The notes beneath the pieces are model-generated. The model worked only from the letters and a program-made list of their open reading frames with translations, had not been told where the DNA came from and ran no database searches. The position numbers and the translations under genes were made by a program. A stretch of 20,000 bases of DNA from Stramenopiles sp. TOSAG23-2 (taxonomy: Eukaryota): positions 58,759 to 78,758 of the forward strand of contig LT649239.1 in the NCBI GenBank assembly GCA_900128395.1, written 5' to 3'. The first letter of the stretch is position 1. Every line of letters starts with the position of its first letter. This document shows positions 426-16,700 of this stretch, in pieces.

Positions 426-2994
426 TTACAAACCAATACAATAATCTTTATCATCGGGGCAAAATTTACCATGGAAATTTGCTGCTAATTTTCCTGGCAT
501 ATCTGCGGTGCCAAGCGTTGCCATTGTTTTTCCATCCAAGATATACAATGTTGAATGGTCTTTTATACTATTATACCCGACAAATATCAATGCACCATCA
601 TCCTCGCTAACTGGATTTGGATTTGGTACGAATAATGGTTCACATACATAGACATTGTCTTCTTGAAATTTCGCCATCACTTCCCCTTTTTCAATATCAA
701 CTTTAATAATCTGATCAATAAAATCAGAACTTCCATCATGCCAATGTGTGTTTGCATCGACGAAACTAGCACCCCATGTATAACGATGAGGCTCCATGTG
801 ATAATTGACCCAATTAAATGTAGCCATTTCAAATGTTTTATCGATGACATCGAGCATCGACGAAACTAGCACCCCATGTATAACGATGAGGCTCCATGTG
901 ATAATTGACCCAATTAAATGTAGCCATTTCAAATGTTTTATCGATGACATCGACACATGTTGGTCTACCTGTAAATACAGGGACGGTACAACGTGTTAAA
1001 CGCGCTTGCGAATAGGTACCGACATAATTTTTTGGTTGGTCCACTAAATTTTCCAAATACATACCATAGGTTATCAACGTATCGTTTTGATACTTAGATA
1101 AATCTACAATGATATTATCGTTCCCATCATCGTACGCATTTAAAATATGATAGACGAACCATGCACCATCAGCAGAATCGACTGAGCGGATCAATGTTCC
1201 ATTATTTCGATCTAAAATATGAAATTTCACTGGAATCGTATCATCCCATGTCATTGCATCTATCACTTTTTTTGCACTCAAAAATTTTAAAAAATGATAA
1301 TGCAATGGACATTGTATCAACAAAACGTATTTCTTCGTTAAACCAAAACTGTGTATGAAAGACGTCATTTTATCTTTCACAGTTCCTATAATTTTACGAG
1401 GTGGCAACGGCCCTGTACCGTTAAACCCAGATTCTTGATATGTCCAAACATTGTAATGCGCACCACCATTAACACCGTCGTTCCATCCAAATTCCAGCCA
1501 ATAATGTTTCTTTTCATGTCGATCGTATCGGCCATGTGCTACGCCTAAACCTAATAAGCCTATTTTTTCAATCTCATCATCAGACCAAGCTTCATTTGCC
1601 CCGCCAATTGTTTCCAATGTTACAGGATCAAATTGAGTAAATAAATTTTCATCTGTTGTTGCAATATATTTATTATCAAATTTCCATAAATTTACTAATG
1701 GGTTGGATGCAAATTTTTCTTGCCATTTTGGTATAGGCGATGATGACTTTTTGCTATTCTTTTGTTGTTTTTTATCTCCAATAACAACTTGATCCATTGT
1801 TGTTGTTATTGTTGCCGTCACTTTATCATCGCCATCCGTTACCGTTCTTGTCGTTGTAGTATTTGGTGCTTCGATCGGTAAATGGGGTCGTGGTCCTGGG
1901 GTTTTAGGTGTGCCATATCCAGGTTCTGCATATTCATTTGATGTTTCGCTTTTATGGAAAGATGTTGTATTTAAATATTTACTTAAATGTACAACTGTGC
2001 CTTTCTCACCATTAATCTCCCAACGATGAACTTGTGCCCATCCATCATTCCAATGGCGTATTTGATCATTTCCATTTTCATATTTTCCTGGTGAATTGCG
2101 CAATAATGCACCATTAAGCCATTTAGGTATCGTACCTTGCAATTTGATCTCATTTCGTGCTACTTCAGGCGTTGTTTCAAAATAACCACTGGCACGACTA
2201 GGTGTTATATATTGAATTGAAGTCGGTGCCGTCATATTAAATAGACCATCGACCATTTCAACTTTTGTTTTTAATACCGTATCACTATTTTTAAGCATGG
2301 ACAATGGGCTTGTACTTGGTACATTCAAAATCGCTTCCTTCAACAATTTTACGCCATATTTTTGTTCTGTTGCACTGTACAATAATGTTTTTGTATCTTT
2401 TACGCTGATTCCATATGTATTGATAATTTGATGCATCAATGGAATTTTAATTGCATTGTCATTAAACGTTGCATCAATAATAACCGCAGCTGCCTCGTTA
2501 TTTGTTACGTCTTTTACGACTACATGTTGTAACTCTGGTGAAGTGTTACGATCCCATTCAAACGTAGCCATCTTTTTAGGTAATCCCCATACATTAATAC
2601 CAGCATCCTTTGCCATTTCATTATCAACGTATATAGCATGGACCCAATTTCCTTTTTTTCCTTCATATTGGACAGTTGCACATATGAATATTAACTCACT
2701 ATATTCAATAGTTGACTGGTTATTATATTTTGCAATATATAATGAACCTTCTGTTAATCCACTACCTTCCTTTGTTTCAACAATATTAAAGTCAGATGGG
2801 ACACATTCTTTTGCAACGGACAATGGAACATCAAACACTTGCACATATGCATTGCCTTTTTGCACCCACGGTGGTGAAGGGAACGATTCTGTTGTCACTT
2901 GCGCAGAATATGACGGTACCATATTAACAAACAAACAACTTATCACAAGTAGTATTACTATCATCATTTTCTCATTATTATTATATTTCCACAT
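426..2994 (-). CDS. Signal peptide + ADC/NXD1-like domain + carotenoid cleavage oxygenase (RPE65/CCO family) fusion; split by a 100-bp duplication frameshift in this sequence
   Basis: Joins ORFs 838..3138 and 426..956. Removing one copy of the 754-953 duplication leaves 2469 nt, an open 822-aa frame from ATG 2994 (alternative ATG 3096 in the duplicated copy). CCO motifs: GTIPKWLNGALLRNSPG, HWNDG, four candidate Fe-binding His (VAHGRYD, FIHSF, VYHILNAYD, NFHGKF), EPLFVPNP..EDDG. ADC-like N-domain (~2225-2884): PPWVQKG, EYSEL, IYVDNEMAKDAGINVWGLPKK. Hydrophobic N-terminus MMIVILLVISCLFVNMVPSYSA. Confidence 0.85.
754..953. repeat. Exact 100-bp tandem duplication (754-853 = 854-953)
   Basis: GCATCGACGAAACTAGC...TCGATGACATCGA occurs twice with period 100 and no mismatches; it frameshifts the oxygenase. 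Confidence 0.97.
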
Positions 2995-3145
2995 GTTTGA
3001 GTATAATCTATAATATACAATATGTATATATATCACGATACTTATCACAAGTAGTATTACTATCATCATTTTCTCATTATTATTATATTTCCACATGTTT
3101 GAGTATAATCTATAATATACAATATGTATATATATCACGATACTT
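2938..3145. repeat. Exact 102-bp tandem duplication covering the start codon and most of the signal peptide
   Basis: 2938-3039 = 3040-3141, followed by 4 further matching bases (ACTT). It appears as a duplicated 34-aa stretch at the start of ORF 838..3138. Confidence 0.97.
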
Positions 3146-3920
3146 TAATTATACGTCTATGTGTTGTGTTTCTATTATTTAATCAATAATCTACAATAAC
3201 ATTAAATATAGATTAAAACACAATTGCAATTTATTATTATACTTCTTCTATGTTTCACCGTGTTGATGGTATATTTCGATAATATATAAATGCACAAATA
3301 ATACCAGGTACTATTATATTTTTAATTAAAATGATATAAAATTCATCAAAAATAATAATCTGAATCACCACCACGGTTTTGCTGAGAAATATTGGTGCTA
3401 ATCACCTCGTATTTGTATTGTTGAAAATATAATATCAGGGAGAATATAATATTAATATTATACCGGAAGACGATGTTTGATGCAAGGTATCTATAGCAGG
3501 GCAGGTCCAAATATTTTTCTTCCAGATTTTTCAGCCGACGCGTGTGCACGTGCCATAAAATTATTATTTTGGAAAAATTAATAAAATGCCTATCCATTTG
3601 ACCAATTTCCAAAGCTTTTCAAGCCTGTGTCCATTGTATTTAGACAGTACAGCATTGTTTTCTTTACTCCTATCTGAAATATGTTTAAGGAGTCTATTTG
3701 AAAAATGAGTGGTTATGGTAGTGTAATCCCTATCAAGTTTTATTACTTAATTAATCGCTTATGTGTATTATTATTTATTATTATTAGGCACTTAGCAATA
3801 ATTTGAAATAATAATAATTGATGATGTGCTGCAAAGATACGAATCTAAAATCTAAATCAGATGTAATATATTCGCCGTTTTTATCGTGATAGTGAACGTA
3901 GAAAACATTTGTTACAAATA

Positions 3921-4283
3921 ATGATGGAAATGAAAGCATATAATCAAGAACAAAATTGTGTCAGTATAAATACAAGATTTACAATGCCCACTACCACCAC
4001 CACCACCACTACAACAACTAATACTGGCAGAAGTAGCAGTAGCAGTATTAGCAGCAATACAATTGTGTGGAATAAAACAAGTGACTTGAATGTTGCTGGT
4101 TTTAGATTCAGTGTTAAGCAACAGCCGGAAGAAATAGTACATCGGGAATGGCGAGTAGCCATGCAACAAGGCACGGGTCGTCAATATTATTATAAAGCCT
4201 CTTCTCCAGAAAACACAACATGGGAAAAACCAATTAATTTAGGTTCTAGGCCATTAACTAGAGTTGAAGTTAACGACTCCTAA
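3921..4283 (+). CDS. Small WW-domain protein (~120 aa)
   Basis: EWRVAMQQGTGRQYYYKASSPENTTWEKP (4146-4232) fits the WW consensus W..G(R)xYYY..TxWExP. The N-terminal half is Thr/Ser low-complexity. First in-frame ATG is 3921; upstream exons cannot be excluded. Confidence 0.75.
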   Translation: MMEMKAYNQEQNCVSINTRFTMPTTTTTTTTTTNTGRSSSSSISSNTIVWNKTSDLNVAGFRFSVKQQPEEIVHREWRVAMQQGTGRQYYYKASSPENTTWEKPINLGSRPLTRVEVNDS

Positions 4284-4645
4284 AAAGTCAGGGGATTTAC
4301 TGCTACACAATTTTTATCGGAACATTTCGGAAACGAACATCTTACACCTTCATATTCGCTAGAACATTGGCATACACCGGTCGATGTGGTACATGTCCCT
4401 TGAGAATTACTGCTACTAGTGCTAGATGAACTCCCACTTGGATTTATTGATGAACAAGTCTTTTGCCAATAATTCCCTTTACACAGACAAAAGCCACCAC
4501 AATCTACCGCTGCTCCGTTAAAATCATTCATAGACTTATCCATACTACTACTACTCCTACTACCAGATAATGTATCTTCGTTTGGATTAAATTTCATTAC
4601 CGGTGTGATTTTCACAGGCGGTATTTTCGCATTTGCTTTCGACAT
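4280..4645 (-). CDS. Small Cys-rich protein with a degenerate EGF-like (tenascin/EGF_2-type) motif; possibly a gene fragment
   Basis: GTCTTSTGVCQCSSEYEGVRC (4337-4399) matches GxCxxxxGxCxCxxxYxGxxC. No signal peptide, and one expected Cys is replaced by a Ser-rich run. Confidence 0.55.
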   Translation of the reverse strand: MSKANAKIPPVKITPVMKFNPNEDTLSGSRSSSSMDKSMNDFNGAAVDCGGFCLCKGNYWQKTCSSINPSGSSSSTSSSNSQGTCTTSTGVCQCSSEYEGVRCSFPKCSDKNCVAVNPLTF

Positions 4646-4679
4646 GATGTTTAAACTTTATTTTCTAAAATTAAAATTA

Positions 4680-4764
4680 GATATGAGCTATATCTAGTAA
4701 AATGTAAAATAATTTCTTTAAAATAGATGATATGAGCTATGCATATATATATATAGTAAAATGT
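4680..4764. repeat. Imperfect short direct repeat
   Basis: GATATGAGCTAT at 4680-4691 and 4729-4740, each followed by TAGTAAAATGT (4695-4705 and 4754-4764). Confidence 0.6.
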
Positions 4765-4966
4765 CAAAAAATAATATTTTTTTCCCCTCTTTTTTGTTAA
4801 TTCTTTTCTTTCGTCAATTTTTTATTATACAATAGACGACAAAAAAGGGGTGTTTAATTTTGTTTGTTTTGCATTATCCCATTTGTGTTTCTTCATCCGA
4901 CTATACTTATAATATATGTATATATGTGTATGTATGAATGTGTTAATCGCGTGTCATATTACCGTA

Positions 4967-5856
4967 CTCCGGCACCTTCCCTCTGTGTCAACTGTCAGGC
5001 TGCCAATGTTATCGCAATGCTAAATTTAACATATATACAGCACCAAATACCCAATTTTTAAGGATTTCATGCCGAATTTTACACCAAATATATTGATTGA
5101 CATCATAAATGATTTGACTTCCAATTTCCTATCCGATCTACCAATACAATTAAGTATAATAAGTAGTAGTCTATAGCTAGATGTGTAAAGTTTGAGAGAA
5201 TATTCCATCCTGTGTGCATACTAGAGATTAATAACTCATATAACAATGGGAAAAATCTGAGGAAATCTGAGAAAATCGGTGGAAATGGTCTAAAAAAAAT
5301 TGGAAATATGTACTTTATTCCATATTTCATGTGAAATTATGCGGATATAAATATATTTAACTTTACATTAAGGTTGTTTTGGTTATTGAGTAGTAAAAAA
5401 AGACGTGATTAAATAGAAATATTATAACATATGAAAATTTAATATGAACGTTGGAAAAATAAATATATTAGAGAAAATTTACCCATATTCAAATTCAAAT
5501 ATGCGGATATATATATATATAAATATATAAATGGATATATACAAAAATGTACAAATCCACTTTCCTAATGTTTTTTTGATGTTTTTTCAGCAGGGATTCT
5601 ATGGGGACCAGGTCCCCATACTAACCGTTCTTTCTTTTTTCATTTTGGACCACAGGAAAGTGGTTTTGTACATTTTTCCGATGGATATGATCATTTTTTC
5701 CTGTGGTTGGTATCCAAAATTAAAACGTATCACTATAAGATAATTAAAGATATTGTTTTTGCATCAAAAAATAAAACGTATTATAATGGAAATATTTTAT
5801 TTTCCATGCCTGAGGCAGGCTCCTTAATCGAAAATATTAGATGGAAGGTGCCGGAG
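4967..5856. mobile_element. Non-autonomous TIR element (MITE-like), probably of the Tc1/mariner superfamily
   Basis: Perfect 14-bp GC-rich inverted termini: CTCCGGCACCTTCC (4967-4980) and GGAAGGTGCCGGAG (5843-5856), extending 3 more bp after one mismatch. TA on both sides (4965-4966, 5857-5858). 890 bp long, with no transposase ORF. Confidence 0.8.
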
Positions 5857-6386
5857 TAGTAGTATTATTATTTATTATTTTGTTATAGCTACCACGTGGT
5901 ACTATTGTTATATTAATAGCAAATCAGTTGCAGTTATTATAATGCCTTTTTCTTGGATTGTGACTAAGCGATAGCAGGTACACATCATTTGGAGCACAAT
6001 CTTTTTTATCTTTTTGACTAAAATTTCTTTTAGGTATAACGCTCTTCGTATACTGTAAGCATGATGAAAAGCTTATTTACCCTGGTAGTACGAAGTACAC
6101 ACCAAACTATTTTAATTAAATACTGCACACTACTGGCATATATAATACTGTATTTTAATTAAATAAAGAAGACGTGGCATAAGAAATTTTATAAAAATTA
6201 TTTTTATACGAAAGTGTAAATAAAAATTGGGTCAAATTTTTTTATTTTTCATCACTAAATCACAAATGTGTCTTTTTTTAATGGATTGATAGCACCTTAG
6301 TTTTTTAATGAGATTAATCATTAAAATAAAAAACGCACACTTTTTCTACGTAGTTCTCAGTTAAAATACGAGTCGTTCTTACTTTT

Positions 6387-9233
6387 TTATGTCAAATCAA
6401 CAACATCATCATCGCTTTCGCTCTCATCACTACTACTACTACTACTTTTATCACTGCCACTTTCATCATCATCATCGTCATCAGATGATGATTCCATTAT
6501 TTTGTTGATTTTTTTTTTAGCATTCAATGCTGCTTTTCTCGATGAACCACGGCGTGCAGCAGGTTTTTTTGTTTTAATAATGATAGGTTCATCATCATCA
6601 TCTTCATCTCCAGAATTTTTCAATACTTCTTCATCTTCTGAACGGCGTGATAAATCCTCCTCATCATCATCATCTATTTGCATCATATTTGACTTGTTTT
6701 CTTCTTCTTCTTCTTCTTCTTCTTCTTCTTCCTCGCCCTCTACAAAAGTAATTCTACTTGGCACAATCGGTTCAGGTAGATTATTTTCCTCATTTGGCAT
6801 TAAACCACGTAATAGACGAAAAACAACATTTGGTCTATTCAATGCATTATGTTGCATATCAAATGCGAAATTAGATGCATCCATAGTATTTATTGGCAAT
6901 AAGAAACAGTTTACACGATCGTCCTCTAAAATTTTACCTTTTTGAACAATTTTTGCTAATTCTCCTTCATCAAATTGTTGCACAGATTCTGTTAATTTTT
7001 CTTCCAATTTTGTTTGCGTCACTTTGCCTTTTTTCACCATTTGTAATAATTTTAAAATTTTAGGTTGTAAATTTAATCGATTATCCTCCAGTGTCTTTAC
7101 ATCCGTCGTACTACTACTACCACTACTGCTACCACCATCACCACCATTTTCAATGCGATCAAGATGTACATCTCCTTTTTCTTGACGATCAATGATGCCA
7201 TTTAATACATGCACGATAGATTTACAAACACTTGGTATAAATCGTGCCATATTTTTTAATCTTTCTGCTTTTGCACGATTTGATTTTCTAGATTTCAACG
7301 TCTGCTTCAACTGGTTACAACATTTTCGTATTGCAGTAGTCACCGCATTGTAATACTCTTTATTAGCTGCACTTATAAATTCCTTCCCCGTGCCTTTAAA
7401 TGGAATTTTTGTGGATACAATACTAACAAATACACCAATCTTATCAATATTTTTTTTGATATGATACGAGCTCCAAGTAATATTGTTCTTTGCAACGCGG
7501 GTAGCGACGTCACTGTGTCCTTCAAATAACAACGGTATACGATTTGCAAAACGATATACATGAATACCTTCTTTTTGTTCTTTTCCACCAATTGATACAC
7601 CGGCTTCAACAATAAATGGGTGTCCTTCAAATACGCATACATTTGTTCTTCCAGTTGCTACATGATCTGGTATATATTCTTTCATAATTCCTAATTTTAA
7701 ATTGTATTCACCAGCTGGCGACAAACAATTACCAGATGGTTTATTAAACTTTGCCTCTTTTAAAATTTTAGTGATATTATGAACTAATTGCGTATCATTG
7801 GTTACTTCGCTTACCCTAATTTTCGGATCAAATTTTAATTCTACTACAAGTTTTTTTGCCAATGCGGGGCTAATTACTTGAAATTCAGAACTTAGAAATT
7901 GCCATAAATATTTTCCTTGTGAAAAATTATGTAACAATTTTTGTACAATTAATTGATTAACGGACGTTGGGTGATGCTTAATCGTCTTTGCTGGAGGTGG
8001 AATGCGCTCTGATCGTCGTTCATACTTCAATGTAAACGGTTTGCTAGTTTTATCACTATCGAAACTTAGTGTGAAATCAGCAAATGGAGTCACAACTGCT
8101 AATGCACTTAGATATTGTTGTATTTTACTTTTTGCCCACATCCAATTACCTTCTAAGACAACTGTAAATTCCGTGCCGCGCCATTTCTCCGTATTTTCAG
8201 TAATTTCTTGCGATATAATTTTAGGTTCATTTTTGTATATATTAATATCTAATTTTGTTTGTGAAGTAGTTTCACCAGGTATTGAACCACCATCGATACC
8301 ATGCGCCGTTCGTATTTCAATCGGTAAACCAGTGCTTTTTTTCGACCAAATCAATGCCATTTTTGCACCGAGGCCAAATTTACCACGAGTTTGCTTAACA
8401 CCATAATTACTCCCGGATAAAACACGGCCAAGGAATTCACTAACTTTTTTCGTTTCCATACCCATTCCATTATCACGGCAAACAATTTTAAAAAAACCAA
8501 CACGATTTATACTTTTACGTTTCGTTTTCTTTCCTTTCTTTTTTCCTCCAGCAACTCCTTTTTTATTATTTGCACCATTCGTAACAACATTTGTTTGAGA
8601 TTGAGATAATTCAACATCTTGTGACATGGATGGCAATGAATCCTCCTGAGTTAAATCAATATTATTATCATTTTGCGATTGACTCATTGCAGATGCAATG
8701 CTATCTTCACTTTCATTTCGTTTGCGTTTATTAGTCGAACCATTGTCGATATCGGAAGATGATGATATTGAGATGATATTTGTATTAATATTATTATTAT
8801 TATCATTGGCTGCATCCTCTTGAATGGCTTTGTTATATAGCGATAAATTTTGTCGTTCTTGCTTTTCGTTACCACGTAAAGCATCGAATGTTTTTTGGCT
8901 CAATTCTGTCACTTCAATTTGTATACTTGGCAATACTTGAATTGATTCAGCTGCATCTAACGAGTTTTCAACTAATTCACGTATTGTAGTATAAAGTGCT
9001 TTCCCAGGATTGTCAAAACCAGCAATATTTTGATTTTCAGCAAAAAATTCGGCTGGATTTTTTTGTTGCACTTTTTTTGATTTCGATTTCCTTTTAGAGG
9101 AAGAAGAAGAGGAGGTGGAGGAGGAGGATCCATCATTTTTTTTCCGTCTCTTGTTTGAGGAGGAGGAAGAAGAAGAGGATTTCTTACTGCCACTAGATTT
9201 ACTTTTTTTTTTTGGTGGATATATAGTGGGCAT
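6387..9233 (-). CDS. TOP6B: DNA topoisomerase VI subunit B (GHKL ATPase, H2TH and transducer domains), 948 aa
   Basis: QKNPAEFFAENQNIAGFDNPGKALYTTIRELVENSLDAAE, DNGMGM, QTRGKFGLGAK, WRGTE, RFANRIPLLFEG and VSTKIPFKGTGKE are hallmark archaeal/plant TopoVI-B motifs. Basic Ser-rich N-terminus and acidic C-terminal tail. Confidence 0.96.
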   Translation of the reverse strand: MPTIYPPKKKSKSSGSKKSSSSSSSSNKRRKKNDGSSSSTSSSSSSKRKSKSKKVQQKNPAEFFAENQNIAGFDNPGKALYTTIRELVENSLDAAESIQVLPSIQIEVTELSQKTFDALRGNEKQERQNLSLYNKAIQEDAANDNNNNINTNIISISSSSDIDNGSTNKRKRNESEDSIASAMSQSQNDNNIDLTQEDSLPSMSQDVELSQSQTNVVTNGANNKKGVAGGKKKGKKTKRKSINRVGFFKIVCRDNGMGMETKKVSEFLGRVLSGSNYGVKQTRGKFGLGAKMALIWSKKSTGLPIEIRTAHGIDGGSIPGETTSQTKLDINIYKNEPKIISQEITENTEKWRGTEFTVVLEGNWMWAKSKIQQYLSALAVVTPFADFTLSFDSDKTSKPFTLKYERRSERIPPPAKTIKHHPTSVNQLIVQKLLHNFSQGKYLWQFLSSEFQVISPALAKKLVVELKFDPKIRVSEVTNDTQLVHNITKILKEAKFNKPSGNCLSPAGEYNLKLGIMKEYIPDHVATGRTNVCVFEGHPFIVEAGVSIGGKEQKEGIHVYRFANRIPLLFEGHSDVATRVAKNNITWSSYHIKKNIDKIGVFVSIVSTKIPFKGTGKEFISAANKEYYNAVTTAIRKCCNQLKQTLKSRKSNRAKAERLKNMARFIPSVCKSIVHVLNGIIDRQEKGDVHLDRIENGGDGGSSSGSSSTTDVKTLEDNRLNLQPKILKLLQMVKKGKVTQTKLEEKLTESVQQFDEGELAKIVQKGKILEDDRVNCFLLPINTMDASNFAFDMQHNALNRPNVVFRLLRGLMPNEENNLPEPIVPSRITFVEGEEEEEEEEEEEENKSNMMQIDDDDEEDLSRRSEDEEVLKNSGDEDDDDEPIIIKTKKPAARRGSSRKAALNAKKKINKIMESSSDDDDDDESGSDKSSSSSSDESESDDDVVDLT

Positions 9234-9885: not shown

Positions 9886-10521
9886 ATGAATAGAATAACC
9901 ACCTTTTCTGGTTTAAATCGATGGATGGCAATATGTTGTTATTGTGTGGTGATAAATATTTTTTCTGTTCTTGGAGAAAATAATATCACATCAACAACAA
10001 ATAATAATATTGATAATAATAACGCATTAGAAGCTATATCTGTATGTAATATTATATCACCACATTTACCCCAGTTTTGTGAATGTGTTAATTATATATC
10101 CAATCCAACTATGGCACAATTGAACTGTAGTGTTACCTTACCTTACCACGTTGATACACTTAAAGTTGTAAGCACATTGGCGCCTTGTGCAGATCCTGCA
10201 TATATTAAAATAAGGGTAGTAGATGGTAAGAAGCATATTGATCATACATTTGGCCCTATTACAGCAACTGGAATGAAAGAACTACCAATTCCATATCTAT
10301 CCATCCATATTCCAGAAGTTGGGGAAGCTGGTGTCACTGCTGCTGTTGAGCTTGGTGGAAATTTAGAACAATTAGATGTTTCTATTGGAATTGATGCATG
10401 TATAAAGGTTCGATCAAAAGAAGAATGTGGAAGTGATTTAACCAAAAAATTACCAATATGGATTTTAAAGCATGATTTCAGTTTTTCAAGTTTGTGCGAT
10501 TCGACAAAAGGTTTTCCATAA
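9886..10521 (+). CDS. Uncharacterised Cys-rich, probably secreted protein (211 aa)
   Basis: Clean ATG-TAA ORF in AT-rich flanks. Hydrophobic segment MAICCYCVVINIFSVLG (alternative ATG 9925), 8 Cys in the predicted mature part, sequons NIT and NCS, and beta-strand-like patterning. Confidence 0.8.
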   Translation: MNRITTFSGLNRWMAICCYCVVINIFSVLGENNITSTTNNNIDNNNALEAISVCNIISPHLPQFCECVNYISNPTMAQLNCSVTLPYHVDTLKVVSTLAPCADPAYIKIRVVDGKKHIDHTFGPITATGMKELPIPYLSIHIPEVGEAGVTAAVELGGNLEQLDVSIGIDACIKVRSKEECGSDLTKKLPIWILKHDFSFSSLCDSTKGFP

Positions 10522-10714: not shown

Positions 10715-13700
10715 CTATGAATCAATCGCTTGTTGCAATAAATGTTTAATCTCCTCCGTTTTAGCGGAATTAATTGCATTTGTTACACCATCTTTTGCTA
10801 ATTGTGTAATTGATTTTGCCATGTCTGGATTTGGCTTACTTAGTATTAATTCAACTATATCAGCATTGGAATATTTCGCAGCATACCATATTGGTGGCTT
10901 ATTATTGTCATCAGCCAATAATAAATCCGTCCGTTTATCATTAATCAACAATCGTTGAATTTCGAAATGACTTTTACTCAAAGACCAATGCAATGCTGTG
11001 GAGCCGGCATTATTTGTTGAATTAACTTTCAGTGTCGGGACATTTAACAAATACGCTACGACATCGACTTTGTTTGCCCATGATGCCATTATTAAAGGGG
11101 TGACACCACTCGCGCCACATTTATTGACATCTTCATTTCCTTCTTCAATTAAAAGTTTCACATCCTTTACGTTGCCACTTTTGGCTGCTTCGACCAGTGC
11201 TGAGGATCCATCAACACTATAGCGAGTTCGGCATTCTTTAATTTGATCGAATATCATTTCTTTTCTAAAAATTAATGCTTTGATATTATCTTTTGAAGAT
11301 TTACCAGATGCATTTTTACCATCCAAATTTTTAATTCTTATATCAATGTCCTTCCGATTTGTAAGCATTTCAACAATTTGTAAATTGTTATTTGCGCATG
11401 CCCAATGCAATGCAGTATCTCCTTTTTCGTCTTGTAAGTTAACATTAATTTCAGGATGTGACAATAACACTCGTACAATTTCAACGTGGCTAACAAATAT
11501 AGCTTGTATTAGCGGTGTGATTTTATTATTTGGATCGAATTGATTTATATCTTCGCCACAACAAATTAATGATTTAACATCTTCTAAATTTAACGCTTCA
11601 CATGCTTGTACTAACTTATTTGCTCCAGGATATTTATTCTTAGCAACTTTAAGTTCGTCGATTTTATCTTGTATTGCAAGTTTAACGTCTACATTTGATG
11701 CTTTTCCTAACGGTGTGTTGCCATTTTCACCAGCTTTTTCAAGCGATTTGCCTATAAACGGATGCTGTAACAATAATTCTACTACTTCAAAATGCGAGTT
11801 CCAACTGCACATCAGTAATGGACATCGATTTTTATAGCCGCCTTTGTTTACATCAATACCAGGTACAGTCAACAAATATTTGCACACTTCATAATGACCG
11901 CTTGCAGCTGCCCGTGTCAATGGTGTATTATTGTCTTGTGTTGGGGCAATTTCATTGATATCAGCTCCACATTCAATAATCATTTGTACATCTTCCAATA
12001 CGCCTGCTTTACATGCTTTTACTAGGACATCTTTATTGCCATACTTGCTATTGATGAGCGCTAATGACTCTTCTGTATCAACAAACATTTCTTGGATCAT
12101 ATTTTTAATTTCCTCCGTCTTTGCTTTAGAAAGTGGTGTATGCCCAGCTTTTCCCGGTTTTAATAACGATGGCTTAATATCAGGATGGCGTAATAACAAT
12201 TCCACAATTTCTACATGCCCTTCCCAGGAACACATGAGAAGTGGGGAACGATTCTGATATCCGCCTTTATTCACATCAATATCTGGATGGTTAATTAATA
12301 ATCTAGCCACAGCAGTATGGCCAGAAGCAGCAGCTCTAGTAAGCGGTGTATTATTATCTTGCGACGGCGCTGTTCTATTAATATCTTCCCCACTATCAAG
12401 TAAGATCTTAACATCTTCCAAATCACCAGCTTTAGCAGCTTTTACTAATTCATCCTCACAACCATACTTATTTTTCACTTCATTTAATGTCTCGATAATT
12501 CCATCGTTGCCATCAATTTTTGCTTGGATTAAATTCCTGATTTGAACCGTTTTAGCTTTTGTTGTAGGTGTTTCATTATTTTTATCAGGCAAATGCAAAC
12601 TACTTTTAATATTTGCCATTGCTAAAAGCATAATAACCACATCCATATGCCCATTCAAAGCAGCAATTAACAACGATGTTCTTCCTGTAGCAGCTTGTAG
12701 AGCATGAAGTTTAATATTTGATTTGCTAAGGAGAAGGCGACAGATTTCTGTGTTGCCTACAGACGCAGCGGCTGTCAATGGTGTATGTCCATCATACCAT
12801 GTATCTGCAACAGCGTTAATATCAGCCCCACCCTCGATTAAGACTTGAACATGTGCTAAATTTCCTGCTTTGCATGCTTGAACTAATTCATCTTTATTCC
12901 TATATTTAAGTTTAACCTCACTTAAAGTTTCAAATGGAGTCTCGATTCGTTTTTGTATCATAGCTTTAATTGCATCTGTTTTAGCTTTTGATAGTGGTGT
13001 ATTGCCTTGTGTTCCTGCTTTTTTTAAACTAGGTTCAATCTTTCTTTGAGCTAGAAGTAGCTCAACCACTTTTGGGTGCCCATTCCATGAACACATAAGG
13101 AGTGGCGACCTATTATTATATCCACCTTTGTTTATATCAATGCCAGGCAGGGTGAGTAAATAACGACATATTTCAACATATCCACTTGCTGCTGCACGTG
13201 ATAATGCAGTATTATTATCTTCACTAGGAACTTTACCATTGATATTCGCACCATCTCTTACTGCAGCTTTTACTTTGTCTATCTTATTATGCTTGCATGC
13301 TTGCACCAGGTCGTTCGTGCACTCTTGTTGTGATCTCGCATTATTTGGGGTGCCATCGATCTTATTTTGAATTAGCTTTTTTATTTCTGTTGTTTTTGCC
13401 TTGTTGAGTGGTGTATGTCCACTTGTTCCAGCTTTTTTTAGCGATGGTCCAATATTTGTATGTGCTAGGAGCATTTTAACAATTTCAGTTGCACCTACCC
13501 ACGAAGCCATCAATAATGGGGAGCGATTGTTGTACCCCCCTTTATTCACATCAATATCCGGATGATTGATCAAGAATCGACAAACTTCAATATGATTACT
13601 TGCAGCAGCACGAGACAATGCAGTATTGCTATCAACACCAGAAGAACCTTTGTAGTTTATATCACGCCCACCATTTATTAACTTTTTCACATCTTCAACA

Positions 13701-16700
13701 ACCCCAGCTTTCGCTGCTCTAATCAGAGCGTCGGCATCATTACCATATTGCTGCAAGATGGCTTGAAAATCTCGTCCAGTGGGACTTTGTGGAATTTCTC
13801 TGCCATCTAATTTTGCTCGAATCAACGCTTTAATTTCATCGCTTTTTGCATAGGATAGAGCAGTATGCCCATTCTTAGTTTTCTTTTTTACATCAACATT
13901 TGGTTTTTCAAGCAGCATTCGAACAATTTCTATATGTCCAAACCACGATGCATAAAATAACGGAGATTGATTCGTCTTTTCGCTTCCTTTGTTTACATCA
14001 ATAGATGATTGAGACAATAATAATCGGGCAATCTCCGTATGGCCTTTCCAAGCAGCCATTACAAGTGGCGTGTCTTTATTGATGTTGTATTTATTCACAT
14101 CTAATCCACCCTTCAATAAAACTTTTACATCTTCTAATGCTCCATCTTTACAGGCAGTACACAAAGGATCTTTTGTTCCATATCGAGCTTTTACAATTGC
14201 AAACGGTTCAGCTTTCCCTTCAATTTTATTCTTTATCATAGTTTTAATTGCAGTTGTTTTAGCTACAGACATTGGTGATTTTCCCTCTTCGTCCGTTGCA
14301 GACAAACTTATATCTGAACGTTGTAGCAACAATTGTACGCATTCTACGTGGCCTTCCCATGCACACATAATAAGTGGAGTTCGATTTTTATATCCACCAA
14401 GATTTACATCAATATTTCTTCGAGCCAACAATATCTTGCAGACTTCCGTGTGCCCGGAAGCACAAGCTCTGGTCAATGCAGTATTATTATTCACAGCAAC
14501 AGATCCTTTCAAATTTACATCAAAACCTGCTTCAAGCAGTACCTTTACGTCGGAAACATTCCCTGCCTTTGCAGCTTTAACCAATTCATCTTTGTTGCCA
14601 TATCTTGTTTGTATCTCATTGACATTTCCAGCACCATGCTGCTTTAACAATTGTTTGATATTGGCATTTCCTGAGCCACAACAATACATTGCTGTGCGCC
14701 CAGAAACGGTTTTTAAATGAACATTGATTTTTGGATGTTTCAGCAATAATCTCACTATTCCAATATCCGATTTGCTACAAGCCCAATGTAACGCAGTTGT
14801 CAAAGATTTATTTGCTGCATTTACGTTAATTGTTGGTTGTTTTAACAATAACTCGACCATTTGATCTTGTTTTGACCATGCTGCTTGAATCAGAGGTGTA
14901 ACTTTGCTCGTGTTGTTGCATTGGTTGACATTTTCCGTGCCGCTGTTTAACAAAACACGAACACTTTCTATATCTTTTGCTTCCACGGCTTTTAATAAAA
15001 GATTGGTGGGGTTTTTGTATTTCTTTCTTATAGCTTTCACTTTTTCATTGATGACAGAGGATTCTTCTATTGCAGCTTTTAATAAGGCTCTTATTTCTGG
15101 TGTCTTTGCTTTAAGCAATGGAGTATTTCCCCCTTTTCCCTTCGCCGTTAATGATGGCTTGATTCCTGGATGGTGCAACAGCAAGTCAACGCATTCCAAA
15201 TGCCCTTCCCACGCACACATTAGTAATGGAGATCGGTTATTGTAGCCTCCTAAATTCACATCAATGCCTGGGGCGGCCAGTAACAGCTTGACTATTCCAA
15301 CATATCCATTTGCACATGCTCTTGATAAAGGAGTATTATTATAATCTGAATCCCCTTTTGCATTTACATTAAGTCCACCATCTATCAAAACTTGAACGTC
15401 CGCTGTTGCTCCAACTTTAGCCGCTTGAAGTAACGCATCTTTTCCATAGTTTTTCTTTACTTCCTCAAAATTGCCACTAGGCGTATCGATTGCAATACCA
15501 AGCTTCTTTTTCAACATTTTTTTTATTGGTTCAGTTTTTGCATAAGTCAAAGCGGTATGGCCATCTTTCGTTTTTGTTTCTATGTCTACACCATCTTTTT
15601 CCAAAATTATCTTCACAATTTCTTCATGCCCAAACCACGAAGCATAAAACAATGGTGATTGATTTTTATCTTTGTTTACTTTGTTGACGTCAATGTCTTC
15701 GCATGCTAATAGGTACTTGGCAATATCAGTATGGCCTTTCCATGCTGCCATAAGTAATGGCGTATCGTTGTGTTGGTCACATTTGTTAATATCTTCCCCA
15801 CCATCTACGAGTACTATTACATCTTCAAGATTTCCTTCGCGACAAGCTTTCACTAATGGGTGTGGATTTTCCCCATATTTTTTCTTTACTGTTTCTAATG
15901 CACTAACAATTTTCGCAGCCCCATGTTTGTCTAGCAATGCCTTGATTTCATCTTTTGTTGCTTTTTTCAACGGAGTGTTTCCCAATCGATCTGCTTTATT
16001 TATGGTTTTTGGGTCAAATTTTTCATGAGTTAAAATCAATCGCACACACTCTACACGATTTTCCCAACACGCCATTAACAAAGCAGTGCGATTTTGATAA
16101 CCGAGCTGATTGATTTTAATTTCTGGACATTGTACTAATAATTTAACAATTTCAACATGGCCTCGTACAGCAGCTTGTAGCAAAGGTGTCATCTTATTCT
16201 TGTCGTACTGATTAACATCTTCACCGCTATCAATCAATATCTTTACATCTTCAACTTCATTTTTTGCACAAGCTAAAACAAATGCGTTTACATCCGCTCC
16301 ATATTTCTTTTTAATTTCTTCTACCGGTTTAGATTTTATCAAATTAGCAATTTCAATAGTTTTTGCCTTTGAAAGTGGGGTATTCCCTTCTACATCGGAC
16401 TTAAAAACGTCAATTTTAGGATGCGTCAATAAAAGACTGACACAATCCGGATGACCATTCCATGCTGCCATTAGAAGTGGTGCACGATCTTGGTATCCGC
16501 CTAAATTGACATCCACTGCTGGAATTGCAAGCAAAAATTCAACAACGTGTTTTCTATTTCTAGCGGCTGCCATTGCTAAAGGCGTATTCTTCATTCCTGT
16601 GCTTGATCTTTCCAACATATTTGGATCATCATCGCCAACTTTAATTAATGTTTTTACATCTTCCAATGCTCCAGCACCAGCTGCTAAGACTAAAATATTT

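Follow-up and report, generated by a model that had tools for sequence, protein, structure and literature searches.

We detected a gene in which an acetoacetate decarboxylase (ADC)-fold domain and a carotenoid cleavage oxygenase (CCO) are joined in one protein, a fusion of two known families that is real, conserved and apparently undescribed. The host is probably a phagotrophic marine protist, and we suggest, at slightly less than an even chance, that the protein is a single luminal digestive enzyme working in two steps, in which carotenoids of the prey are cleaved and the resulting carbonyl compound is processed as a Schiff base, with the food vacuole as the probable site.

The fusion gene and its domains

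The window, the whole stretch of 20,000 nucleotides analysed here, is AT-rich and eukaryote-like, with long single-exon genes. On its minus strand, a match to PF06314 (ADC; 63.1 bits against a Pfam cut-off of 29.8, E 3.6e-17) is followed by one to PF03055 (RPE65; E 4.6e-62) in one open frame, with neither a stop nor a repeat at the junction. An earlier note on this DNA, made from the letters alone, had likewise placed an ADC-like domain in frame directly before the CCO, without duplication or break. The features are as follows.

2994-426, minus strand: fusion gene, a single frame from 2994 with leader, ADC-fold domain and CCO domain
2938..3141, no strand: exact 102-nt tandem duplication across the start region, an assembly artefact
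2905..2994, minus strand: N-terminal leader, residues 1-30, signal-peptide-like, with a hydrophobic stretch after Met10 (2967)
2224..2883, minus strand: ADC-fold domain PF06314, residues about 38-257, of the subfamily that contains NXD1 (Pfam, model, hhalign, HMM)
2695..2727, minus strand: Tyr90, Tyr98 and Glu100 (Y-x-E motif), putative acid/base residues by column conservation
2575..2577, minus strand: Lys140 (WGLPK; codon AAA in a WGLPKK context), equivalent of the acetoacetate decarboxylase Schiff-base Lys
2200..2223, minus strand: inter-domain linker of 8 residues (6-23 in relatives)
854..2199, minus strand: CCO domain PF03055, first part, residues 266-714 (Pfam, alignment)
1735..1881, minus strand: Thr/Lys-rich insert in place of the animal PDPCK loop (alignment; pLDDT <50; length variable in relatives)
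1651-1653 and 928-930, minus strand: CCO residues Asp448 and Glu689
1534-1536, 1351-1353 and 1147-1149, minus strand: CCO residues His487, His548 and His616
754..853, no strand: extra copy of an exact 100-nt tandem duplication, an assembly artefact that causes a frameshift
426..753, minus strand: CCO domain, final part up to the stop codon, with Glu752 (639-641), His808 (471-473) and C-terminal C...YCIGL

Assembly duplications and gene integrity

The assembled sequence has a frameshift in the CCO, where a 100-nt stretch is repeated exactly in tandem (754-853 = 854-953) and puts the final 108 residues of the fusion into another frame; a second exact duplication, of 102 nt (2938-3039 = 3040-3141), overlaps the gene start. 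Both are assembly artefacts. The 100 nt are skipped by contigs of runs X1 (which may be the source run of the assembly), X5 and X17 (an RNA run), and in the start region X1 contigs skip 102 nt and X5 contigs 101 nt; the RNA run X9, with 4 of 30 bins covered, reaches neither duplication. The intact frame is also present in L001 and in the 822-aa protein P0003, with 8 differences from the window among the first 714 residues and none in the final 140. The two duplications and the frameshift could be taken to mean that the fusion is an assembly chimera or a pseudogene, which we regard as extremely improbable, as independent contigs do without the duplication, record 13 of X5 spans the ADC-CCO junction, intact 822-aa proteins exist and the gene is under purifying selection. 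The fusion that the earlier note had proposed from this one contig is present both in an independent contig, that same X5 record, and in relatives, through 11 clusters with both domains.

No RNA contig bridging the domain junction was found, which speaks against a two-step enzyme; the pieces from X17 end at 2231 and restart at 2315, and this gap is a lack of cover, with no sign of two transcripts. In the orthologue L002, a run of G at 1699-1703 contains a frameshift that is probably a sequencing error, since the cluster mate P0035 is intact. A viral origin was also considered and dropped, with none of 51 pattern matches in IMG/VR confirmed.

Distribution, selection and origin of the fusion

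When proteins of 394-1257 aa were searched with the ADC part, 7 of the 671 candidates matched, and each of the seven has both Pfam domains. With the CCO part we obtained 19 matches at E<=1e-20, of which 11 carry both domains, three start within the ADC tail, two are free CCOs and three are distant (25-26%); a profile search added two further partial fusions. The fusion occupies 11 clusters at 90% identity, at least ten of them related clusters of environmental sequences, and the database names of these proteins mention the CCO half alone. Across 11 near-complete fusions, identity is 39-83% in the ADC domain and 53-86% in the CCO, with linkers of 6-23 residues. Against L002, the ADC domain has a dN/dS of 0.047 and the CCO parts have values of 0.02-0.09, and the fusion is under purifying selection.

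Both halves also occur alone. Free CCOs with a leader at their start are P0236 and P0235, the latter with a complete cluster mate, P0262. In our trees, P0236 groups with the fused P0234 (97/98), so that free CCOs are nested among fused ones, and the free ADCs P0012/P0014 are sister to the fused P0007 (100/100); of the ADC trees, that of 139 rows is a quick tree, and that of 52 rows leaves out 81 bacterial and 6 protist rows and has unsettled bootstrap values. Because free forms are nested among fused ones, the simplest reading is that the clade descends from a fused ancestor and that fissions came later, and the tree suggests a single Rosetta-stone event that was long retained. Free ADC domains of the protist clade comprise P0012-P0015, P0074-P0078 and P0084, of which most have a leader as well as 2-4 sequons; beside P0007, the four proteins P0012-P0015 resemble a paralogue expansion, and P0078 is a free secreted ADC from the diplonemid Namystynia karyoxenos. 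Grouping with P0078 is P0081, a 635-aa protein with a leader, an MRJP/yellow domain and a C-terminal ADC domain of the same protist clade.

These forms bear on the weight of the fusion as independent evidence for a shared pathway, as the earlier note had used it: its conservation stands, but it counts as one evolutionary event, and the ADC domain has once been fused to an unrelated MRJP. They also tell against a two-step enzyme, since an ADC domain that is free or joined to MRJP in the same clade may be a promiscuous secreted module. It is conceivable, though in our view unlikely, that two digestive enzymes with unrelated substrates are delivered together behind one signal peptide, the ADC-fold domain being an aldolase/hydratase for small prey carbonyls and unconnected with carotenoids. 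A single fusion event with later fissions, the MRJP-ADC protein, the free P0078 and the absence of ADC-CCO clustering in cyanobacteria are in keeping with such joint delivery. Retention of the fusion in 11 clusters with a short linker is not, and the NXD1 phenotype, the cyanoglobule localisation and the HCP adjacency described below point instead to carotenoids or lipid droplets.

The ADC-fold domain

Five ADC-family chains match the structure model at Z 18.0-20.8 over residues about 27-265, the best being 3bh2 (Z 20.8, rmsd 4.1, 220 aligned), with 4zbo at Z 18.6 and 4jm3 at Z 18.2. These fold matches come from the full-length model, in which the ADC region has a pLDDT of mostly 55-83 (overall pLDDT 57.6, pTM 0.47; domain packing is not reliable from it); the N-domain modelled alone has a pLDDT of 41. 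With the PF06314 match, they bear out the ADC-like assignment of the N-domain. The Lys codon is AAA at the position first given for it, and the G-x-P-K Lys, read by the earlier note as the Schiff-base residue, does fall in the Schiff-base column of the superfamily by alignment. The equivalent residue in the reference enzyme is the Schiff-base Lys115 (PMC11388336). All 13 fused domains, all 10 free protist domains and all 107 bacterial rows have Lys in this column, and in these alignments the conservation of Lys140 is not specific to the fusion; that free protist and bacterial domains keep it equally argues against a two-step enzyme. Glu100 is present in all 138 rows counted (six groups), and Tyr90 in all except 3 classic ADCs.

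The classic acetoacetate decarboxylase (3bh2; NF002614) resembles the fusion domain in its fold (Z 20.8), Lys and Glu. As an assignment for the domain it was rejected, given a NF002614 score of 29.7 against a cut-off of 150 bits and a long branch separating it from the subfamily. The non-decarboxylating Sbi00515 (4zbo) and MppR (4jm3) have the same fold (Z 18.6 and 18.2) and also carry the PPW start and the Y-x-E, W..IYVD and G-x-P-K motifs; both act on keto acids, and where they have Arg114/Gln118 and Tyr24 the fusion has Ala131/Trp136 and Gln45. Sbi00515 catalyses enone hydration/retro-aldol chemistry. The Arg columns of the keto-acid enzymes, which bind the keto-acid carboxylate in classic ADC and Sbi00515, are Asn48 and Ala131 in the window protein; the Arg column is Arg in 3 of 3 outgroup rows and mostly Asn, Thr, Asp or a gap in the fusions. 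Loss of the carboxylate-binding Arg would fit a neutral carbonyl substrate. MppR uses an active-site Lys, according to the available part of a preprint (bioRxiv 10.1101/2023.03.21.533663).

Relationship to NXD1

The ADC-domain profile retrieved 556 proteins at E<=0.001, and the best 150 of these run from the protist clade through bacterial PPW...WGLPK proteins to four plant proteins. The nearest ESM Atlas clusters of one of the four, P0210, are named NEOXANTHIN-DEFICIENT 1 (0.97); the plant rows are four NXD1-type proteins, named through the Atlas for P0210 only. The fused domain aligns to the plant NXD1-type proteins with hhalign at 98% and E 5e-14, and an HMM built from the plant rows gives fused domains a median of 70.5 bits compared with 0.4 for classic ADCs. 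By these profile comparisons, the fusion domain is closer in homology to NXD1 than to classic ADCs.

Plant NXD1 (At1g28100 family) and the cyanobacterial all0736-type proteins share the PPW start, Tyr90, Glu100 and the GLP motif with the fusion domain. However, the Lys position is Ser in 4 of 4 plant proteins and the Tyr98 column is Phe in 4 of 4; this GLPS and F-x-E signature is not found in the fusion, which has GLPK and YSE. In the tree, the fused domains and the plant domains fall into two clades of their own (100/100 and 100/99), but a constraint to one clade with four plant rows is not rejected (p-AU 0.358). The NXD1-like character claimed for the N-domain holds at the level of the subfamily, with orthology to NXD1 no more than a possibility, and the tie to carotenoid chemistry drawn through NXD1 is real but looser than proposed, as the plants lack the Lys. 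With Ser in its place, Lys chemistry cannot be the mechanism of NXD1. The PPW start, offered as a sign of NXD1, does not serve as one, being shared by 4zbo and MppR.

In the available text of one study, NXD1 is cytosolic, required for neoxanthin and thought to make an unknown factor (PMC8151144). The plant proteins are accordingly cytosolic, unfused and in a separate clade, whereas the fusion has a hydrophobic leader. Excerpts of two further studies report that NXD1 yielded no neoxanthin in E. coli (PMC12317632) and that Anabaena all0736, an acetoacetate decarboxylase family protein in cyanoglobules, is a homologue of At1g28100/NXD1 (PMC12923008).

The CCO domain

Residues 271-813 of the model match the CCO 6vcf, with its seven-bladed propeller fold, at Z 34.4 (rmsd 2.8, 417 aligned), and the four Fe-binding His (487, 548, 616 and 808) are present in all 11 near-full-length fusions. 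The CCO domain is complete, as the earlier note had held, with PF03055, all four His and an intact counterpart in P0003. Its second-shell acidic residues are Asp448, Glu689 and Glu752, Asp replacing Glu at the first position, and the animal PDPCK loop is absent in the alignment. A protist-only CCO profile scored NdCCD at 267, BCOLg at 168, NinaB at 166 and RPE65 at 158 bits, followed by ACO (79-89), plant CCD1 (70) and stilbene enzymes (<=43). Stilbene cleavage oxygenase was rejected as an identity on these last scores and on an NCBIfam equivalog match of 34 against 800 bits.

The accessible part of a study of lancelets (PMC13734108) describes BCOLg (PDB 9plv) as a secreted, gut-expressed enzyme without PDPCK that converts beta-carotene to all-trans retinal, and reports that Asp for Glu at the first second-shell position is harmful in RPE65 and present in BCOLg. 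BCOLg is thus like the fusion in its signal peptide, its lack of PDPCK, its Asp at the RPE65-Glu148 position and its proposed digestive role on algal carotenoids; unlike the fusion, it is a single-domain animal protein, and its Asp408 corresponds to Glu689 here (Glu in 11 of 11 fusions). The likeness is one of features, the CCO tree being built without animal sequences. Because the active BCOLg carries the same Asp, the His/acidic set is in place and the profiles match, the CCO domain is probably active on carotenoids or apocarotenoids.

The best match in both sequence and fold is NdCCD of Nitrosotalea devanaterra (6vcf; 267 bits, Z 34.4), which differs from the fusion in being archaeal, about 25% identical, without leader or ADC domain, and with Glu at the first second-shell position. 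NdCCD is apocarotenoid-specific in the portion available of its description (PMC11142922), and this, together with the homology to NXD1, suits a scheme that begins with the N-domain, which would cleave or isomerise keto- or epoxy-xanthophylls of prey (fucoxanthin, echinenone, violaxanthin) with iminium assistance and so make a substrate for an NdCCD-like apocarotenoid oxygenase. Although such a scheme is the closest to NXD1, we consider it improbable: the Lys is missing from plant NXD1-type proteins, no neoxanthin was obtained with NXD1 in E. coli (PMC12317632), and free CCOs occur in the clade.

Leader and localisation

We also observed a hydrophobic N-terminal leader that is absent from the earlier note. 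It reaches a maximum 11-residue hydropathy of 3.44 in the window protein, and 10 of the 11 near-full-length fusions have a peak of 2.25-3.44 before the domain, the eleventh being cut at its start. None of the 11 has a later transmembrane-like stretch (19-residue hydropathy <2.0). Each fusion carries 6-10 N-glycosylation sequons, above the composition expectation (p<0.05) in 1 of 11, which counts against a luminal two-step enzyme. From the leader, the protein is probably secreted or in the secretory pathway.

The N-domain could be a carrier without chemistry of its own that holds an aldehyde such as retinal as a Schiff base or presents carotenoid to the CCO, letting a soluble luminal CCO act without anchorage in a membrane. 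The lack of any transmembrane stretch after the leader (11 of 11), the missing PDPCK loop and the neutral-carbonyl pocket are compatible with this; yet all 13 fusions retain Glu100 and two Tyr, beyond the needs of binding, and the free CCOs P0236 and P0262 of the clade do without an ADC domain. We regard a pure carrier as a minor possibility.

Cyanobacterial gene neighbourhoods

Among 401 cyanobacterial genomes, 54 carry the subfamily gene. No CCO gene was detected in the flanks of 82 cyanobacterial loci, in a scan whose seed HMM picked up 7 of 8 CCO loci already known, nor in a wider set, some loci of which have a 1.5 kb flank only; in the 17 genomes with both genes the CCOs lie on different contigs or at a distance of 390 kb or more. 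These counts are for cyanobacteria only, and about 63 of the 80 loci in one set are Microcoleus-type near-copies. The bacterial ADC-CCO neighbourhood that the earlier note had put forward as a test was thus negative for CCO genes in cyanobacteria, which weighs against a two-step enzyme.

The commonest neighbour is a short gene for a carotenoid-binding Carot_N protein (HCP, PF09150). It stands tail-to-tail with the subfamily gene, at a distance of 50-780 bp, in 24 of 76 distinct loci, which are spread over three parts of the tree (Microcoleus relatives, L077 and L081), compared with a chance of about 0.002 of an HCP neighbour at one locus. Because the two genes converge, the HCPs share 71-89% and the pattern was noticed post hoc, the pairing is one weak hint that probably reflects one old event; convergent genes form no operon, which again does not favour two steps. 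The HCP-paired loci include L011, L031, L077, L081 and the Microcoleus-type loci. A plasmid search found the subfamily gene in two cyanobacterial plasmids only; in L004 and L005, which are Nostocales plasmids, it adjoins dnaN and an AAA ATPase gene. We also observed long frames of 670-825 aa with weak split PF03055 matches at G001:C1:1757743-1759542 and in G008, G014, G032, G096 and G118.

A proposed two-step digestive enzyme

We favour a two-step enzyme because the fusion is kept with a short linker across 11 clusters, its catalytic residues are conserved and it is under purifying selection, and because of the likeness to NdCCD and BCOLg and the subfamily hints from cyanoglobule all0736 and HCP adjacency. 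The signal peptide would direct the protein into the ER lumen. There, by family resemblance, the Fe(II)/four-His propeller would cut a C=C bond of a carotenoid or apocarotenoid with O2, giving conjugated aldehydes or ketones, with retinal as one candidate. The ADC-fold domain would then bind the carbonyl through Lys140 as an iminium, and Glu100 and the Tyr residues could provide acid/base catalysis for hydration and retro-aldol shortening, or for re-isomerisation to all-trans.

Such an enzyme could possibly supply retinal, and the fusion gene is thus a candidate for retinal supply in MASTs. In the accessible text of PMC8163842, MASTs have rhodopsins, blh is present in few species, the retinal pathway is poorly recovered, and an RPE65-family gene is present and suggested as an alternative. 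A MAST-4 VDE-like gene is described without an N-terminal extension in the part available of PMC3998028. Secreted CCOs, presented as a novelty in lancelets (PMC13734108), would be extended to abundant marine protists and could be an ocean carotenoid sink.

A bolder reading, which we think unlikely as a whole, takes the PPW/GLPK ADC-fold subfamily (protist fusions, all0736-type and plant NXD1) as an unrecognised apocarotenoid-handling class. In grazing protists the fusion would work in the phagosome as a two-step machine, with all-trans retinal or shorter products made from the carotenoids of prey, and the Lys-less cytosolic NXD1 would bind or convert an apocarotenoid. If true, the chromophore source of blh-less MASTs would be answered, and a cytosolic apocarotenoid handled by NXD1 would be the 'unknown factor' for neoxanthin. 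No substrate is known for the NXD1 subfamily, and the fusion makes CCO products candidates. We found no description of the ADC-CCO architecture in the open-access literature searched, and the available portions of PMC10016063 and PMC5643517 do not mention it.

Other genes in the window

Upstream of the fusion gene, the region 3270-6327 does not align to L001. It contains two short abutting frames, at 3909-4283 (plus strand) and 4280-4645 (minus strand), one WW-like by eye (no Pfam match) and one with an EGF-like match. The frame at 9886-10521 (plus strand) encodes a protein of 211 aa that contains Cys, begins with a hydrophobic segment and falls in no clear Pfam family. The frame at 6387-9233 (minus strand) encodes a topoisomerase VI B subunit (PF09239), which in L001 is about 1.4 kb from the fusion. 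The longest of these frames, at 10715-19900 (minus strand; 3061 aa), has a helical N-terminus, which we take to resemble an MLKL-type four-helix domain (without a Pfam match), together with a protein kinase domain (PF07714) and many ankyrin-like repeats.
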